The position numbers and the translations under genes are program-made. 64,000 bases of DNA from a virus (lineage: Duplodnaviria > Caudoviricetes): positions 71 through 64,070 of IMG/VR virus record IMGVR_UViG_3300042993_000007, one strand, 5' to 3'. Below the pieces are notes generated by a model, which worked only from the letters and a program-made list of their open reading frames with translations, had not been told where the DNA came from and did no database searches. This document shows, piece by piece, positions 4,903 to 64,000 of this stretch (positions within the stretch are counted from its first letter, which is position 1; each line of letters begins with the position of its first letter).

Positions 4903-5422
4903 CGGCTACCAACTTGTCCTGACTTTCGCTGGCAACCTTTTCCCATTCGTCGATATTGGCAATCCCTGGAACCACCATAACGCCGCCCCGGTTGTTGCCG
5001 GTGCCCTTGTCTTTCTTAGCCACATCCATACCGTGAATGCGGGCCAGTTGGCCCAGGGCAGCCACACGGGACGACGCCGAGCCGCCTGGGCCACGGTAGT
5101 TGGCTTCACGGCGCAGGCCGACAAGGATCTTACGCTTGTCGTCAGCGGCCTCAACCTTGGGGTTGGCAGGTTCTTCGAACTCGGTGTTCTTAATTTTGCG
5201 CTGGACATAGGACTCGCCCATAAAGCGCACGGCGTATTCTTCTGCGAACGCACGCATAAAGCCGCACCGCATTGCAGCGCAGACTGGGTCGTAGTCTTTG
5301 AGGAATTCGCTAACGAAGAAATCACGGAGAGCCTTTTCGCGGCCTTCTGGCTCAGGCTCGATCTCTAGAAAATCACCGTCCCAGAATCTCTTCTGGTCGT
5401 CGCTTGGTGGCTGCTGAGCCAT
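4889..5422 (-). CDS. terS: Terminase small subunit
   Basis: Immediately upstream of terL; FVSEFLKDYDPVCAAMRCGF and SRVAALGQLARIHGMD patterns. Confidence 0.8.
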   Translation of the reverse strand: MAQQPPSDDQKRFWDGDFLEIEPEPEGREKALRDFFVSEFLKDYDPVCAAMRCGFMRAFAEEYAVRFMGESYVQRKIKNTEFEEPANPKVEAADDKRKILVGLRREANYRGPGGSASSRVAALGQLARIHGMDVAKKDKGTGNNRGGVMVVPGIANIDEWEKVASESQDKLVADART

Positions 5423-6606: not shown

Positions 6607-7137
6607 CTAAGCGGCCACATCTGACCACAGGTAAGGGTCCTTAAGACCTTTCTTCAGTTTGGCAATCACCTTGGCTGCGGCCTCAACCTTGGTGACCCTG
6701 CCGTCCTTGTCAGCGTCCAGGCCGGAGTTCTGCCGGTAGGCTACGCCGCTACTGAACAGCACGCTGGCCTCCGGTGCGCCGATGTACTTCGGCAGGAGGA
6801 TGGCCATATACATATCCGGCAGCGTTGCGATACGCCGGTAGTACGGGTGGAAGTATTCGAACACTACGTCCAGCTGTTCCTCGGCGGACATGCTTGCCAG
6901 TTCGCGCACGTTGGTGCCCAGGCCCAGCGCAGTACCGGGCATAAACTGAATCAGGCCAGTGGCACCACTGCCAGCAGCGTTCTTCACGCTAGGGCTGAAG
7001 GTTTCACCTGTCTCGAACGCCATACAGGACATCAGCCAATCGGCATGGCTGGCACCCCAGTGGTACGTCGCGCAACCTTCGAACACCTTGTCGCGAAAGG
7101 CTGCACTCACCTTATTGCCCCAAGCGAGCTGTTTCAT
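6607..7137 (-). CDS. Endolysin (lysozyme-like/transglycosylase fold)
   Basis: CMAFETG catalytic Glu, SGATGLIQFMP motif; heads the lysis cassette. Confidence 0.88.
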   Translation of the reverse strand: MKQLAWGNKVSAAFRDKVFEGCATYHWGASHADWLMSCMAFETGETFSPSVKNAAGSGATGLIQFMPGTALGLGTNVRELASMSAEEQLDVVFEYFHPYYRRIATLPDMYMAILLPKYIGAPEASVLFSSGVAYRQNSGLDADKDGRVTKVEAAAKVIAKLKKGLKDPYLWSDVAA

Positions 7138-7580
7138 TTGCGCTTCCTCATTCTAATCGTTTGAACAGGACCGCCAGTAAATGCGTCAAGGTTCTTGGCG
7201 CACTCAATGGCTTGGCGTGCTGTGTACCCCAGGTGCATCGCAGCGAGTGCGAACTGGTGCCCGCTGCCGCCAACCCACGGCACGGCCACAGGTACGAACA
7301 CACCACCTGAGTAAATCTCACACGGGTTGGTGCCGTCGGCGTTGACAATCAACCCTTCAAACTCACCCTCTTTCTCGTCCCACTTTGGCGCTGGTTCAGG
7401 TTGGCCATCGTCAAGCCATTTGCGCACAATAGCGACACCCTTCGTTGTGCCGCAGCCAGCCAAGCACCTGCCGTCGTTGAGGATATACAGCTTCTGTTCG
7501 CTAAGGCTGGCTATGACGCCACCGCATGAAACCTGACTGTCACTAGCCAGGGTCTTACCGTCGAAGGCTAATGTGGTCAT
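7134..7580 (-). CDS. HslV/proteasome-beta-like Ntn-hydrolase peptidase
   Basis: N-terminal M-T-T, LASDSQ, conserved Lys (EQKLY), GGSG, DAFTGG. Confidence 0.7.
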   Translation of the reverse strand: MTTLAFDGKTLASDSQVSCGGVIASLSEQKLYILNDGRCLAGCGTTKGVAIVRKWLDDGQPEPAPKWDEKEGEFEGLIVNADGTNPCEIYSGGVFVPVAVPWVGGSGHQFALAAMHLGYTARQAIECAKNLDAFTGGPVQTIRMRKRK

Positions 7581-7825
7581 GCGTCCTCCCACTTGCCGAA
7601 ATCTGAAGAGCGGGAGTCGAATATCCGTACCCGACCCCGCTTGGTAATGGTCTTAACTTTTTCACCCCGTTCGTCAAGCATAAAGCGACCGCATGCATCT
7701 ACCGCAAACTGCTCCATGACCCCAAGCTTGCTATCAGCCATGATAACAAATCGTTGACGGACGTCGTCCAGGAACACCCACGTCCGGTTATGTCCAGGAT
7801 GGTTCTTTTCCATATCGACTAGCAT
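7577..7825 (-). CDS. Hypothetical protein (82 aa)
   Basis: ATG 7825, tight coupling with both neighbours. Confidence 0.55.
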   Translation of the reverse strand: MLVDMEKNHPGHNRTWVFLDDVRQRFVIMADSKLGVMEQFAVDACGRFMLDERGEKVKTITKRGRVRIFDSRSSDFGKWEDA

Positions 7826-7827
7826 GG

Positions 7828-8295
7828 TTACACCCGAGGCCGTTCGCCGAGTTGCAGCTTGCGGTCCACCCAGTTGCGGAACCACTGTTGGAAGTCGTCC
7901 ATACTGATTTCTGCACGAGCCTGGACGTGCGCTACGGTTGCGCCTGGGAGCGCTGGCAGGGCGATCCAGGCTGGCAGTACTACGCGCCACGCTTTGCGGT
8001 TTTGGCGGTACAGCAGCACAGGCAGCTCGTTGTTACGGGTGGCCGCTGCGGTGCATTGTGCCCACCACGTATTCACGCTCAGAGCCTCCTGGCGTTTGAC
8101 CTCGATGCACAGGCCGAAGGTGTTGGTGAGGTCGCTGCCGCCAACCGCACTTTGGTTCTGGTTGCGCTGCACGATCTGGCCCAGGGGCGGGTCGATGTCG
8201 CGGAAACGCATGCACTCGACAATGATCGGGTCGAGTATCTTTGATATTTCGGTTTCGCCGCTGGCGCCTTTCTGTCTGACGTTAATGTTGGGCAT
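7828..8295 (-). CDS. Holliday junction resolvase-like PD-(D/E)XK nuclease
   Basis: KGASGE...SDL...IEVKRQE...PVLLYRQNR motifs; ATG 8295 with GGAG SD. Confidence 0.8.
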   Translation of the reverse strand: MPNINVRQKGASGETEISKILDPIIVECMRFRDIDPPLGQIVQRNQNQSAVGGSDLTNTFGLCIEVKRQEALSVNTWWAQCTAAATRNNELPVLLYRQNRKAWRVVLPAWIALPALPGATVAHVQARAEISMDDFQQWFRNWVDRKLQLGERPRV

Positions 8296-8324
8296 TTGAA
8301 GCTCCTTACTCAGGTATTTGAACG

Positions 8325-8627
8325 TTAGGGGTGAATGGCTACGAGCGCAAGTGTCGCAGCGGCACCCAACGTCAGGAACTCGAGGGTCCATACCCAGGTG
8401 CTCCAAGTGGTACGTTTCCACCACTCGCTGTTCCACGCACGGCGCATCACATACGAGCGGATGAAGGACACGATTGTGAACCAGAACACCAACCACAAGT
8501 CGGTCTCGTAGCTGGTGTATATGCCGTACATTGGGAAGAAGACCCACTGCGCCACCAAGCCCACCAGAACACCTACGAGGGTGCTGACCACAGCCTCAAC
8601 TAGACTGGCTCGCTTGGACTGGCTCAT
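8325..8627 (-). CDS. Small membrane protein
   Basis: MSQSKRASLVEAVVSTLVG..., 2-3 TM segments. Confidence 0.65.
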   Translation of the reverse strand: MSQSKRASLVEAVVSTLVGVLVGLVAQWVFFPMYGIYTSYETDLWLVFWFTIVSFIRSYVMRRAWNSEWWKRTTWSTWVWTLEFLTLGAAATLALVAIHP

Positions 8628-9154
8628 ATGTCACCGTCGTCCGGCACGCCGAGGTAAGTCTTCCACGGCACCTTGGCACCGTCGACCATGAAACCCCACA
8701 CGCCTTGCCAGGGACCACTGATAAACAGGGTGTACACGCCACCGGGGCTGATGCGGTCGATGCGGTGGTACTCGCCGAAGCCAAGCTTTGCCGTGTCGCC
8801 ACGCTGACGGATGAATGTGTACTTGACGTCGAACGCTGCACTTGGCACGTCGAGCAATCGTTCCTCCTCGTACCAGCCGCGCAGGATAATTGTCCTGGCG
8901 TTCCACGGGTGGTCGTGCAGGTCGCGGTCAGCGTCGGCGCGCATAATGTGGTGGACCCGTATCGACCATGGACACCACCAGAACTTCGGTTTGTTGTTGG
9001 TTCGGCTGTACGGGTTGAACACCCACCACCGCCCCATATACATATCCTTCTTGTCCTGGGACATGATGTGCTTGTACGGCGTTTTGAAGCTCCGCTTAAT
9101 GATCCAATCCGCAACCAATTGTCGGCTGAGGAACCAAGCTATTAGTTTCCACAT
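8624..9154 (-). CDS. Cupin-like metal-binding protein
   Basis: HHIMRADADRDLHDHPW and EYHRI His motifs. Confidence 0.6.
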   Translation of the reverse strand: MWKLIAWFLSRQLVADWIIKRSFKTPYKHIMSQDKKDMYMGRWWVFNPYSRTNNKPKFWWCPWSIRVHHIMRADADRDLHDHPWNARTIILRGWYEEERLLDVPSAAFDVKYTFIRQRGDTAKLGFGEYHRIDRISPGGVYTLFISGPWQGVWGFMVDGAKVPWKTYLGVPDDGDI

Positions 9155-10833: not shown

Positions 10834-11457
10834 CTAGAGCCTCAGGCCGTGCGCGGCTAGGACCTTTTTCATGCGATCGGGTTTGGTTTTGAGGTGGTGG
10901 CACACGTCGGTGAAGCACATGGTTCCCTGGAGCGATTTGAACTGTTCAAACAGTTGGCGGTCGCGCTCAGCCCAGCTCACTTTCTTGTACACCATGGCAT
11001 CGGGGTTGTTGGCGAACTCTGACTCCAGCACGCGCTGCATCACGCCCTCGCTGCAACCGCAGTGGTGCAGGAATTCACACTTGCCGAGTTTCAGCGGCAG
11101 CAGTTCTGCGATACGTTTAGCCACAGCAGCATCCTTGGCAGCCCTTGCCGCGTCAATGCGCTTGTTAGTGGCTTCGGTGTGCTGCTTATACTGCTCTACC
11201 GTGAACTTGCCCGTCTCGGCCACGTAGGCGCGGTTGTAACAGGTTTGGTCGTCCACGCGAAGGCCGGACTCCAGCTGGGTAATGGTGCCACCTTGGGCAA
11301 GGAACTTGGCGGTCAGGTCTTCCAGCTCGGCATGCAGGGCGGTATGGTCTTCCGCTGGCGGCACGTCGGACCATTCGTCCGGCGCAGCCCAGGCTTCCTC
11401 AACGGGCATAAGTATCGAGCTGCTGTCTTTTTCCATTGTGGCGGCTTTAGCATTCAT
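10834..11457 (-). CDS. Putative transcription regulator: SutA-like RNAP-binding segment plus two HTH-like repeats
   Basis: LHAELEDLTAKFLAQGGTITQLESG resembles SutA EEFLSRGGKVQEIE; acidic N-terminus; two helical HTH-like C-terminal units. Confidence 0.55.
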   Translation of the reverse strand: MNAKAATMEKDSSSILMPVEEAWAAPDEWSDVPPAEDHTALHAELEDLTAKFLAQGGTITQLESGLRVDDQTCYNRAYVAETGKFTVEQYKQHTEATNKRIDAARAAKDAAVAKRIAELLPLKLGKCEFLHHCGCSEGVMQRVLESEFANNPDAMVYKKVSWAERDRQLFEQFKSLQGTMCFTDVCHHLKTKPDRMKKVLAAHGLRL

Positions 11458-11755
11458 GGTCGTTCCCCTGGGTAATCGAGGGCAACCCGAGTGAGTTTCT
11501 TACGCACTCAATTGCCATAGTTATGAAGCTGATTCGGGCATAGATTTCCGATGCAGTGTGGATGGATTGGTGCATTGTGCTTGGGTCATCGGCGCAAGCA
11601 ATTTCGGTGATGAAATCGGTGTAAGCCTCAACCTGGATTTCACGTTCAATGTTGAGGTTACGAAGTTCGCGGTACTGGTGGAACCGGGCTTGGCTGCATA
11701 CAACTTGAGGTTCAAGGCCGGTGGCAGCGTCTGTGAATATTTTAGCGCAACCCAT
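11447..11755 (-). CDS. Hypothetical protein
   Basis: 102-aa ORF, GGGAG SD, coupled to downstream gene. Confidence 0.6.
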   Translation of the reverse strand: MGCAKIFTDAATGLEPQVVCSQARFHQYRELRNLNIEREIQVEAYTDFITEIACADDPSTMHQSIHTASEIYARISFITMAIECVRNSLGLPSITQGNDHEC

Positions 11756-11789: not shown

Positions 11790-11924
11790 TTATTTCAGAA
11801 ATACGCTGTCAAGCTGGGTTGTGCCGCATGTGCGAGTGGTTGGGGTGGGGTATGTTGCGAGGATAAACAGCCAGGTGATTGCTATGCAAAAGGCGAAGGA
11901 CATTGCAAGCTTCAGAGGTTTCAT
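11790..11924 (-). CDS. Small TM protein (44 aa)
   Basis: ATG 11924 with GGAG SD downstream of promoter at 11988-12021. Confidence 0.5.
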   Translation of the reverse strand: MKPLKLAMSFAFCIAITWLFILATYPTPTTRTCGTTQLDSVFLK

Positions 11925-11987
11925 AGATACTCCAAGGGCTGCGTAGCTGGGTGAGGTAGTTCGCTTCCGTTGCTGCCCTTGGTTGTA

Positions 11988-12021
11988 ACTGTAGCGCAAC
12001 AACTTTTTCCTGCAAGATTTT
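11988..12021 (-). promoter_or_regulatory. sigma70-like promoter with AAAATC upstream element
   Basis: AAAATC-TTGCAG-N16-TACAGT. Confidence 0.6.
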
Positions 12022-12043
12022 AGTGTTAGGAAATTGTAACAGC

Positions 12044-12451
12044 CTAATAACCCGAGGCGTTACAGCGGCTTAACACCTCATACCGGCTGATGCGAGGTAG
12101 CTCGTAAGTCCGATACACACGATAACGGCACTTCGCCTGCATAGACGTTGTGCCGTTGTTTTCACGCCGCATGGTTGGCAAGTTGGGCTGACCCGGTCCG
12201 ATTCCGAATGCCCGTGCCGCTGCACGACGTTCCAACCTGTCTTGGCTGCCGTCGCCCCCAGGACTGATCGCCGTTGTCCACCCTGGGGTTGGGGGTGGTT
12301 CGGTCCAATCTTGGGCGACAACCGACTGGTGGGTGAAGGCAGGCTGTAGGGCCACCCTTTCGTCACCGTCGTCTGCCACCGCCCAGGTGGCCCCGTAGCC
12401 AACCAAAGCCAGGGCCAACGTTCCGAGTAAAATTACACGCTTCACAGTCAT
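12044..12451 (-). CDS. Hypothetical exported protein
   Basis: MTVKRVILLGTLALALVGYGATWAVA signal peptide; AGGAG SD. Confidence 0.55.
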   Translation of the reverse strand: MTVKRVILLGTLALALVGYGATWAVADDGDERVALQPAFTHQSVVAQDWTEPPPTPGWTTAISPGGDGSQDRLERRAAARAFGIGPGQPNLPTMRRENNGTTSMQAKCRYRVYRTYELPRISRYEVLSRCNASGY

Positions 12452-12613
12452 TTGCATTCTCCTACCTATAGTGTAGCTGACTGCATAAGGCAGGGCTCGA
12501 ATCACAACTTCTAGTCCAACCATCTTCACCTATACCGCGTTGTGACCGCGTGAAGCTGGCTACGGCTGGAGGTGATCACCCTGCTATCTAGCCCGGTTGT
12601 GCCGAACCCTGGC

Positions 12614-12814
12614 TTATGCAGTCTTACGATCGCGGAACAGTACCATGACGATAACCACAACCCAAATCACGGTCAGGAAACGTACCATCGATGGGCGTAT
12701 GCTTGGCGTGCCGTCGGCCAAGTCTGCGGCCTTCAACATCAGGTTGAATGCGTATGCACCCAGTATATACAGCGCTGCCACAACGAACCACAGGATTTGA
12801 ATTTGCGTTAGCAT
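12614..12814 (-). CDS. Small two-TM membrane protein (66 aa)
   Basis: ATG 12814 with GAGGT SD. Confidence 0.6.
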   Translation of the reverse strand: MLTQIQILWFVVAALYILGAYAFNLMLKAADLADGTPSIRPSMVRFLTVIWVVVIVMVLFRDRKTA

Positions 12815-13150: not shown

Positions 13151-13179
13151 ATTAAAGCCATTTCTTGAAAAGGTCGCAA
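13151..13179 (-). promoter_or_regulatory. sigma70-like promoter
   Basis: TTGCGA-N17-TTTAAT. Confidence 0.65.
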
Positions 13180-14113: not shown

Positions 14114-14399
14114 TGGTGTCTCCTGGTGGTTTAATGAAGGCCGCGATGTCGGCTTCAAGTGATTCGTGCTGCTCGCACGCCAGGGCACCGCTGTCCAGCA
14201 CCTTCTGCAACAGGTAGGCAGCACGCTCCAGGCGACTGTTATAGGTGGCCGCGCCTTCGTCCCTGGCACGCACACGCCGGATTGCCATTTCAATACCGCT
14301 GCCGTAGATGTGGTGGATCACAGACTGCTTGACGCCCCTGGCGCGCATTGCCAGGGCTTCGGCTACCATCTCGTCAGTGTACTTGATCGGCATTATCAT
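14106..14399 (-). CDS. Hypothetical protein, N-terminal HTH-like
   Basis: KYTDEMVAEALAMRARGVKQSVIHHIYG pattern. Confidence 0.55.
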   Translation of the reverse strand: MIMPIKYTDEMVAEALAMRARGVKQSVIHHIYGSGIEMAIRRVRARDEGAATYNSRLERAAYLLQKVLDSGALACEQHESLEADIAAFIKPPGDTNG

Positions 14400-31149: not shown

Positions 31150-32079
31150 ATGGCTTCGCTGAACTTTAATGCCCAAACTGTTGCACCGTCCACCGGCCAG
31201 TTGGATGCCATGCCGAAAGGCTGGTACAACGCGCTTATCGAGAGCTCCGAAACCAAGCCGACCTCCAAAGGTGACGGCTCGTACCTGGAACTGAAATTCA
31301 AAATCATTTCCGGGCGTTTCCATAACCGCAGTGTGTACGCACGTTTGAACCTCAACAACCCCAACCCGGTTGCCCAGGAAATCGCGTACAAAGACCTGAG
31401 CGCAATCTGCCACGCCACCGGCATCCTGAGCGTCCAGGACAGCAGCCAGTTGCACAACATCCCGTTGAAGATCCGGCTCAAGGTGCGCAAAGGCAACGAC
31501 GAGTACGACGACAACAACGAAATTTCCGCGTTCAAGAATATCAACGAGCAGGTGAAGCTCGCCGACGACGAGAACCCGGCTCCTGGTGCGGCTGGCGGCT
31601 ACCAACAGATGCCACCGCAACAGCAAATGCCTCCGCAGCAAATGCCTCCTCAGCAACAACAGCAAATGCCTCCACAGCAGCAGTATCAACAGCCGCCTGT
31701 GCAGCAGCAACAGCAGATGCCGCCTCAGCAGCAGTACCAGCAGCAGCCCCCAGTGCAGCAACAGCCGCCGATTCAGCAACAGCAGCCGCAGTACCAGCAG
31801 GCCCAACAGCCTTGGCAGCAGCCTGACCAGCAGCAACAGCAGCAACAGTATCAGCAACAGCCGCCAGTCCAGCAGCAGATGCAACAGCAGCCGCCAATGG
31901 ACCAGCCTCCGCAGATGCAGCAGCAGATGCAACAGCAGCCTCCGGTGCAACAACAGCAGCAGATTCCTCCGCAACAGCAGCAACAGCAACAGCCTCCTGT
32001 GCAGCAACAGCAACCGTACAACGGTGCTCAGCTGAACAACCCTCAAGCAGCTATTCCACCTTGGCAGCAGCCGCAGTAA
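31150..32079 (+). CDS. DUF669-type ssDNA-binding protein with about 160-aa Gln/Pro tail
   Basis: MPKGWYNALIESSE...YLELKFKII...RLNL...NEISAF; CAG/CAA-rich 3' half. Confidence 0.75.
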   Translation: MASLNFNAQTVAPSTGQLDAMPKGWYNALIESSETKPTSKGDGSYLELKFKIISGRFHNRSVYARLNLNNPNPVAQEIAYKDLSAICHATGILSVQDSSQLHNIPLKIRLKVRKGNDEYDDNNEISAFKNINEQVKLADDENPAPGAAGGYQQMPPQQQMPPQQMPPQQQQQMPPQQQYQQPPVQQQQQMPPQQQYQQQPPVQQQPPIQQQQPQYQQAQQPWQQPDQQQQQQQYQQQPPVQQQMQQQPPMDQPPQMQQQMQQQPPVQQQQQIPPQQQQQQQPPVQQQQPYNGAQLNNPQAAIPPWQQPQ

Positions 32080-63895: not shown

Positions 63896-64000
63896 ACGCT
63901 GCCGCTTTCATCGACGGAGAACACGCGCTCGCCCAGCAGGATGGCGTCGTCGATCGCGGTGTCCAGCAGGCCGGACTTCTTGCCTGCAACACGAATCGAG
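63896..64000. repeat. Exact 105-bp terminal overlap (copy 2)
   Basis: Identical to 1-105. Confidence 0.97.

Follow-up and report, generated by a model that had tools for sequence, protein, structure and literature searches.

The Locus and Its Genomic Neighborhood

The SutA-like gene described here occupies positions 10834..11457 on the minus strand of the window, the stretch of 64,000 nucleotides that was analyzed. It comprises 207 codons and a stop (10834-10836), begins with ATG, and is preceded by an AGGGGA ribosome-binding site located 7-8 nt 5' of the start codon. Directly upstream, on the same strand, lies an ORFan of 102 codons (11447..11755) that has no Pfam or PHROG match, and whose stop overlaps the start of the SutA-like gene by 11 nt. 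This 11-nt overlap is also present in the relative L005, and the two genes are probably translationally coupled. Compared with its L005 counterpart, which is 73% identical at the protein level, the SutA-like gene has a Ka/Ks ratio of 0.17 (0.09 for the first of its two C-terminal units alone), and it is, therefore, under purifying selection.

The window covers almost the entire 64,070-base IMG/VR virus record, which is rated complete by CheckV. Positions 1-105 are 100% identical, over 105 nt, to positions 63896-64000; these ends correspond to terminal redundancy or to a circular assembly, so that the unique genome measures ~63.9 kb. Among the sequencing runs listed as containing this sequence, none is an RNA run, and the only one that contains it in full is a rhizosphere metagenome, possibly the source sample. 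The window carries a siphovirus gene set (terminase, portal, head, tape-measure, and tail genes), together with replication genes encoding a primase, helicases, and a family-B DNA polymerase. The latter is ~50% identical to that of the Pseudomonas phages JG054, NP1, and PaMx25 (Nipunavirus, Queuovirinae). A search of the phage for an integrase found none. Searches of the complete 64-kb record for sigma-70 regions 2 and 4, multisubunit RNA polymerase (RNAP) domains, and T7-type RNAP (this last family without a positive control) were all negative, in line with the first-pass annotation, which had stated that the genome encodes neither an RNAP nor a sigma factor.

The SutA-like gene belongs to a run of ORFans located between a helicase gene and a block of RusA, HslV-like peptidase, and terminase genes, to which a holin gene was assigned by synteny with relatives. 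The ten proteins neighboring it have no informative Pfam or PHROG match, and the same holds for ten proteins or candidate ORFs found around the divergent control region and before the terminase. Three genes between the SutA-like gene and the lysis and packaging block, all on the minus strand, could be assigned: a gene matching PHROG 4786, 'cysteine dioxygenase' (8624-9154, E 1e-42), a gene for a 239-residue protein with a RusA-like resolvase domain (7828-8547), and a gene for an HslV-family peptidase-like protein (7134-7592). Just upstream of the SutA-like gene, three small minus-strand genes (12044-12470, 12614-12814, and 11790-11924) resemble genes for envelope proteins. One of the products starts with what resembles a signal peptide (MQMTVKRVILLGTLALALVG...), another (66 residues) contains two hydrophobic helices, and the last is a hydrophobic peptide of 44 residues that is conserved in L005; these may be superinfection-exclusion or moron-type genes. 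Elsewhere in the window, a long Gln/Pro-rich repeat, for which CAG/CAA tracts code (31600-32079, plus strand), ends a 309-codon ORF (31150-32079).

Promoters and Non-Coding Elements

A consensus scan for sigma-70 promoters and terminators between positions 5000 and 24000 returned no more sites than in shuffled sequences, and no minus-strand site near the SutA-like gene. Hexamers of the form TTGCGA-17-TTTAAT are present at 13151-13179 on the minus strand, followed by ~330 nt without a credible ORF. They are absent from the list of scanned sites because their -10 element lacks an A at position 2. If this promoter is real, the SutA-like gene would be part of a unit driven by host sigma-70. Repeat and k-mer searches of the intergenic regions of the phage yielded no repeated or shared motif, and no candidate binding site.

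A block of ~60 nt within the non-coding stretch at ~11925-12043 (minus strand), upstream of the ORF at 11790-11924, is nearly identical in L005 (9445-9706), although the L005 protein is only 73% identical. It holds an 11-nt inverted repeat, CCAAGGGCAGC ... GCAGCCCTTGG, with a 29-nt loop. This conserved block could act as an operator or promoter, or as an RNA element, for the operon to which the SutA-like gene belongs.

Domain Organization of the Protein

The AlphaFold2 model of the 207-residue protein has a mean pLDDT of 81, with values above 90 across most of residues 87-207. The ORF had been described in the first-pass annotation as an acidic N-terminus followed by a SutA-like segment and two helical units, and the three stretches quoted for it can all be located (residues 41-69, 115-144, and 172-204). 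The N-terminal tail (residues 1-37; 11347..11457, minus strand) is indeed acidic (9 D/E vs 2 K/R, pI 4.1) and, from its composition and a pLDDT of 42-70, mostly disordered. It contains a D-x-W motif, PDEW, at residues 26-29 (11371..11382, minus strand), which the model places in a short helix (residues 26-31); D27 and W29 occur in at least 90% of 33 family sequences.

The tail is followed by the SutA-type segment, or anchor (residues 38-66; 11260..11346, minus strand), and then by a linker with the start of a long helix (residues 67-104; 11146..11259, minus strand). According to the model and the family alignment, this linker begins with a low-confidence part containing a conserved N75 and continues into a 36-residue helix (87-122) with a conserved H93, which would make it a spacer between the anchor and the C-terminal units.

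The C-terminal half consists of two helix-turn-helix (HTH)-like units, unit 1 (residues 105-157; 10987..11145, minus strand) and unit 2 (residues 158-207; 10837..10986, minus strand). An hhalign comparison of residues 100-157 with residues 158-207 gives a probability of 95% and an E-value of 3e-8 over 42 columns; the tandem units noticed in the first reading of the sequence are, therefore, a real internal duplication. Both are modeled as tri-helical, with a pLDDT above 90. Unit 2 (residues 160-207) superposes on HTH domains with an rmsd of 1.6-2.3 Å over 43-48 residues (Z 4.6-6.4), the matches including the second HTH of AraC-family proteins, NtrC/Fis, DeoR, sigma region 4, and Mu C. Unit 1 (residues 93-160) matches domains of the winged-helix/HTH type, with Z values of 5.8-6.6. 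As all Z values lie below 8, this fold resemblance is generic. Among Pfam models, no HTH family matches the protein at an E-value of 0.01 or better, the best being the KilAC/ANT domain (E 0.12); some relatives show weak Pfam HTH matches (E ~1e-3), to HTH_23 in four of 33, and to HTH_17 and HTH_28 in a few. A Foldseek search of the whole model against the PDB gave no match at an E-value of 0.001 or better, while a structure search of BFVD retrieved one uncharacterized phage protein, and Atlas matches, likewise weak and of the HTH kind, had TM scores below 0.5.

The two units differ in conservation and charge. Unit 1 is near neutral (pI 6.9) and conserves D109, S136, Q141, R142, L144, and F148, with a mean top-residue frequency (0.49) close to that of the anchor (0.52). 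Unit 2 is variable across the family (0.31) and basic (pI 9.9). A zinc site at the Cys/His cluster of unit 1 (residues 127-135) was considered and rejected, only one cysteine recurring widely beyond close relatives.

The SutA-Type RNA Polymerase-Binding Segment

The segment consists of an amphipathic helix (residues 39-54), two glycines (GG, 56-57), and a short strand (58-65). Its resemblance to SutA, proposed by the first-pass annotation, holds up in a profile search: the Pfam family PF20661 (SutA RNAP-binding domain) matches residues 39-69 over model positions 4-34 of 35, with a score of 35.1 bits and an E-value of 8.5e-9. As this exceeds the curated gathering cut-off (29.3), the resemblance goes beyond chance. 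In a six-frame search of the phage, PF20661 scores 38.1 bits at this place, the sole one above the cut-off, and the same search of 14 control genomes produced no match reaching it (0 of 14). A second PF20661-like stretch, at ~14130-14174 on the minus strand, stays below the threshold (12.1 bits, E 0.012), covers model positions 5-19 only, and is probably due to chance.

A profile built from the family matches the solved SutA chain 7f0r_G over the RNAP-binding region, with an E-value of 5e-4. This PDB chain contains ...AMEEFLSRGGKVQEIE..., and the SutA peptide given in the first-pass annotation agrees with it. The same profile also matched the designed 'CAP repeat' protein 8vd6 (E 1.4e-4), a match that was discarded, as it sums five weak repeats, each with an E-value above 100.

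Structural work and mutagenesis map the interface of SutA with the beta protrusion of RNAP to the hydrophobic residues L67, M71, F74, L75, V81, and I84, to two glycines (G78 and G79), and to two polar residues (K60 and R64) (PMC9300723). In the phage protein, L67, F74, L75, G78, G79, V81, and I84 correspond to L45, F52, L53, G56, G57, I59, and L62, so that, of the eight interface positions occupied by a hydrophobic residue or a glycine, seven are kept. The remaining one, M71, is replaced by T49 (L48 being adjacent), while K60 and R64 correspond to H38 and H42. The equivalents of the SutA interface are also the most conserved positions of the family: G56 is invariant, G57 is present in at least 90% of the sequences, and L45, F52, L53, and I59 are each present in 83%. 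On the basis of the PF20661 match, the family profile, and the contacts predicted with RpoB, residues 38-66 are assigned as a SutA-type RNAP-binding domain.

Predicted Complex with RpoB

The complex was predicted with residues 15-90 of the phage protein, together with their family alignment, and residues 1-530 of Pseudomonas aeruginosa RpoB (RPOB_PSEAE), which span the protrusion and the lobe and serve as a stand-in for the RpoB of the phage's own host. The score was 0.69 (0.69, 0.70, and 0.67 in individual runs), and the best of three controls scored 0.01; 58 of 80 solved complexes attain the mark used for such scores, as do two of 110 mismatched pairs. The runs agreed in at least 50% of the contacts, with a partner pLDDT of at least 54. 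The complex suggested as a check in the first-pass annotation thus scores above its controls, a result that may reflect the predictor's knowledge of the SutA-RNAP structures already solved (7F0R, 7XL3, and 7XL4).

The predicted complex puts the anchor on the beta protrusion, at the site of SutA. Confident contacts involve residues 55-64, 71, 73, 101-127, and 470-495 of the beta subunit, and residues 32-38, 41-42, 45, 48-49, 51-52, and 58-65 of the phage protein. H38 is predicted to adjoin beta residues 58-59, and H42 to adjoin beta residues 61-62 and 73; these are the places taken by K60 and R64 of SutA against S59 and E73 of the beta subunit. As a model, the complex supports binding of the anchor to the beta protrusion.

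Family, Distribution, and Gene Context

An exhaustive HMMER search delineated a family of proteins of ~150-260 residues, several with alignments that span almost the whole length; PF20661 is matched in 31 of 33 members. The close homologues are four proteins, 50-96% identical and known only from metagenomes, two of them encoded on 64-65-kb contigs with the same gene order. Where members of the wider family are named, their source is always a Pseudomonas genome or a Pseudomonas phage, and their annotation is invariably 'hypothetical protein'. SutA is confined to the Pseudomonadales-Oceanospirillales clade, within which the hosts of the family lie. A protein of 4745 residues with 23 matched stretches (P0006) is a repeat protein of low complexity and was set aside as spurious. 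Longer fused forms were searched for without success, although this counts as weak evidence.

Cultured phages are matched only by the more distant family members. The four homologues from cultured Pseudomonas phages all exceed the PF20661 cut-off. Four temperate phages, Ab31, FBPa47, PAShipCat1, and YMC11/02/R656, carry the homologue in an early operon, ~63 nt after a RecT/Bet-exonuclease module; a single-strand binding protein (SSB) gene is annotated between this module and the homologue in three of the four, and in FBPa47, an integrase gene is found further along the stretch that holds the homologue. Five of the nearest cultured relatives by DNA polymerase were searched, and none has a PF20661 match at an E-value of 0.1 or better; these were JG054, PaMx25, NP1, and Xanthomonas phage DoCa3 (the four being Nipunavirus), and Acinetobacter phage HD01. 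A megablast search with 5 kb and a tblastn search with the protein, against 50,697 phage records, returned no match, and scanning IMG/VR and species-representative genomes with alignments of the family yielded no confirmed locus. As the nearest relatives tested do without the gene, and as it is located early in the temperate carriers, it behaves like a mobile accessory module of unrelated Pseudomonas phages.

The C-terminal part varies among relatives. In one subgroup, comprising L001 6001-6600 (ORF35 of Ab31), P0022, P0028, P0031, P0034, and P0035, a zinc ribbon (CxxC...CxxC) stands in for unit 2, and the module ends in a conserved EQPSAA-type tail. In three other relatives (P0015, P0016, and P0025), a third HTH follows unit 2.

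Comparison with Known Systems

The closest characterized counterpart is SutA itself (PF20661; PDB 7F0R, 7XL3, and 7XL4), with which the phage protein shares the helix-GG-strand RNAP-binding domain and its mapped interface residues, an acidic and largely disordered N-terminal tail preceding this domain, the groove of the beta protrusion as the predicted site, and hosts from the same bacterial clade. SutA is, however, a 105-residue host protein with a short C-terminal tail and no DNA-binding domain, whereas the phage protein, with 207 residues, has an additional long spacer helix and two HTH-like units, which form a folded C-terminal half of 120 residues. Its N-terminal tail (37 residues) is also shorter than the ~53-residue acidic domain of SutA, and the D-x-W motif is specific to the phage family. 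It is not SutA proper, which would be a protein of ~105 residues with no further domain and a match to the curated NCBIfam SutA model: at an E-value of 10 or better, NCBIfam returned no SutA model for the phage protein, but NF058628 (PFL_1563 small protein; 19.7 bits for a cut-off of 60) and one unrelated weak match. The acidic N-terminal domain of SutA is essential for activation; its wedge loop and acidic domain enter the gap between the protrusion and the lobe and the cleft, and its C-terminal end approaches sigma region 3.1 (PMC9300723).

PHROG 12813, which includes ORF35 of Ab31, gp019 of YMC11/02/R656, FBPa47_0074, and a hypothetical protein of IME307, matches residues 21-153 (E 6.5e-12) and displays the same architecture of anchor and unit 1. 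Its members differ in being only 20-30% identical to the phage protein and encoded by temperate phages, many of them with a CxxC...CxxC zinc ribbon or an extra HTH that replaces or follows unit 2.

MarA/SoxS (AraC family) and Mu C/Mor are likewise small HTH proteins, acting with RNAP at initiation. The second HTH of AraC-family proteins superposes on unit 2 with an rmsd of 1.6-1.8 Å over 48 residues (Z 4.6-6.4), and Mu C matches it with a Z of 4.8, but the tandem arrangement of AraC-type proteins fits the two units poorly (3oio, rmsd 7.4 Å over 84 residues, Z 4.8). These proteins have no sequence relationship with the phage protein, and their points of contact are the alpha-CTD or sigma region 4 rather than the beta protrusion. 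VP1 is another small phage protein that touches the beta protrusion of host RNAP (preprint, 10.64898/2025.12.17.695035). It is a three-helix bundle located in the main channel and bridging to sigma region 2, with neither a SutA-type domain nor HTH units. The proteins reported from the AlphaFold3 screen for phage RNAP inhibitors are unrelated to the SutA-like family (10.64898/2025.12.17.695035).

Proposed Role and Alternatives

Taken together, the evidence for the anchor, the HTH fold, and the duplication supports a protein that docks on RNAP and is fused to HTH-like units. The first-pass annotation had described an RNAP clamp fused to DNA-binding modules; the joining of a SutA-type anchor to two HTH-like units stands, and sequence-specific DNA binding by these units is putative. 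The protein is probably an accessory phage factor that docks on host RNAP and retunes initiation; its expression most likely falls in the early or middle phase of infection. The points counted against this reading are the use of P. aeruginosa RpoB as a stand-in and the solved SutA-RNAP structures that the prediction may reflect, the T49 that replaces M71, the histidines found in place of K60 and R64, the absence of a Pfam HTH match to the protein itself, the generic Z values, and the lack of a repeated candidate binding site in the phage.

The first-pass annotation had assigned the protein to the late genes, on the grounds that something must drive them. As a dedicated late-gene switch, it would bind late promoters, recruit host RNAP through the anchor, and be needed for the lysis and structural genes. 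The gene shares its strand with the holin, terminase, portal, and head genes and lies ~4-6 kb upstream of them, the protein has a basic HTH unit, and the complete genome has no detected sigma factor or RNAP, all of which would suit such a switch. Nevertheless, ~ten ORFan genes lie between it and the late block, the intergenic regions have no shared motif, and in the four temperate phages, the homologue belongs to an early recombination operon heading towards the integrase. The late-gene reasoning is further weakened because none of the five nearest cultured relatives tested has a PF20661 match, even though these might carry an unrelated substitute. Such a late role is, therefore, unlikely. It is also rather doubtful, if somewhat less far-fetched, that the protein acts without binding DNA, as an RNAP blocker or a competitor of SutA whose HTH-like units bind sigma or RNAP in the manner of AsiA; the outcome would be a shut-off of host transcription, or the loss of SutA-dependent stress transcription. 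The conservation of unit 1, comparable to that of the anchor across unrelated phage genomes and with its low Ka/Ks, fits a conserved host protein target better than DNA, the location of the temperate homologues matches early host-takeover blocks, and inhibition is proven for VP1, which links the beta protrusion to sigma region 2 (10.64898/2025.12.17.695035). However, unit 2 is basic and, in relatives, swapped for zinc ribbons or extended by typical HTH_23 units, a pattern that resembles an exchange of nucleic-acid-binding modules, and the acidic N-terminal tail, which SutA needs for activation, is retained.

It is very improbable that the protein is an ordinary DNA-binding protein making no contact with RNAP, its SutA-like stretch being a convergent amphipathic helix followed by a GG turn. 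The shortness of the domain (only ~30 residues) and the weak match of an unrelated solved protein, the conserved hypothetical protein 2fiu, to the same stretch (E 0.023) speak for convergence. Against it, PF20661 exceeds its cut-off in 31 of 33 relatives and in none of the 14 control genomes, the positions conserved in the family are the mapped interface residues of SutA, the predicted complex reproduces the SutA pose while its controls score 0.01, and the hosts of the family all fall within the clade that bears SutA.

For the favored reading, an accessory factor docked on host RNAP, a possible mechanism can be outlined, in which docking draws on homology and on the model, while the later steps are those that we infer. 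The anchor (residues 38-66) would occupy the beta protrusion's hydrophobic groove and, like SutA, add a strand to its sheet. The acidic N-terminal tail with its D-x-W motif would point to the gap between the protrusion and the lobe and to the main cleft, as do the wedge loop and acidic domain of SutA. The chain would leave the anchor on the side where the C-terminal end of SutA nears sigma region 3.1, and the 36-residue helix would hold the HTH pair near the upstream part of the promoter complex. Because its conservation equals that of the anchor, unit 1 probably binds a conserved surface of the host's sigma or RNAP. For unit 2 (or the zinc ribbon of relatives), DNA is the probable partner, given the variability of this unit, its basic charge, and its replacement by zinc ribbons. 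Overall, the protein would adjust how host RNAP initiates at some of the promoters, through activation or inhibition. By occupying the SutA site, the phage protein would also deny it to SutA.

Significance for Phage and Host Biology

Until now, SutA has been known solely as a small protein of Pseudomonas itself, which it helps to keep transcribing during dormancy. A full-text literature search retrieved no paper on phage SutA-like proteins, and the combination of a SutA-type anchor with a duplicated HTH is an architecture undescribed in the literature. A broader view, put forward tentatively, is that the SutA peptide may be a portable anchor to which Pseudomonas phages fuse exchangeable modules, such as the HTH pair or the zinc ribbon, yielding an undescribed class of transcription factors that stay permanently attached to host RNAP at the beta protrusion; the acidic tail would open the cleft as in SutA, and the C-terminal module would choose the promoter. 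Even without this broader view, a phage family that joins the docking peptide of SutA to modules of the DNA-binding type would mean that phages have taken over the SutA site on RNA polymerase, and that regulators of modular build can be fastened to the enzyme at its beta protrusion. This is directly testable, as the family is present in the cultured phages Ab31, YMC11/02/R656, IME307, and FBPa47. Phages may then compete with SutA in slow-growing hosts, which would bear on phage therapy against chronic P. aeruginosa infection.
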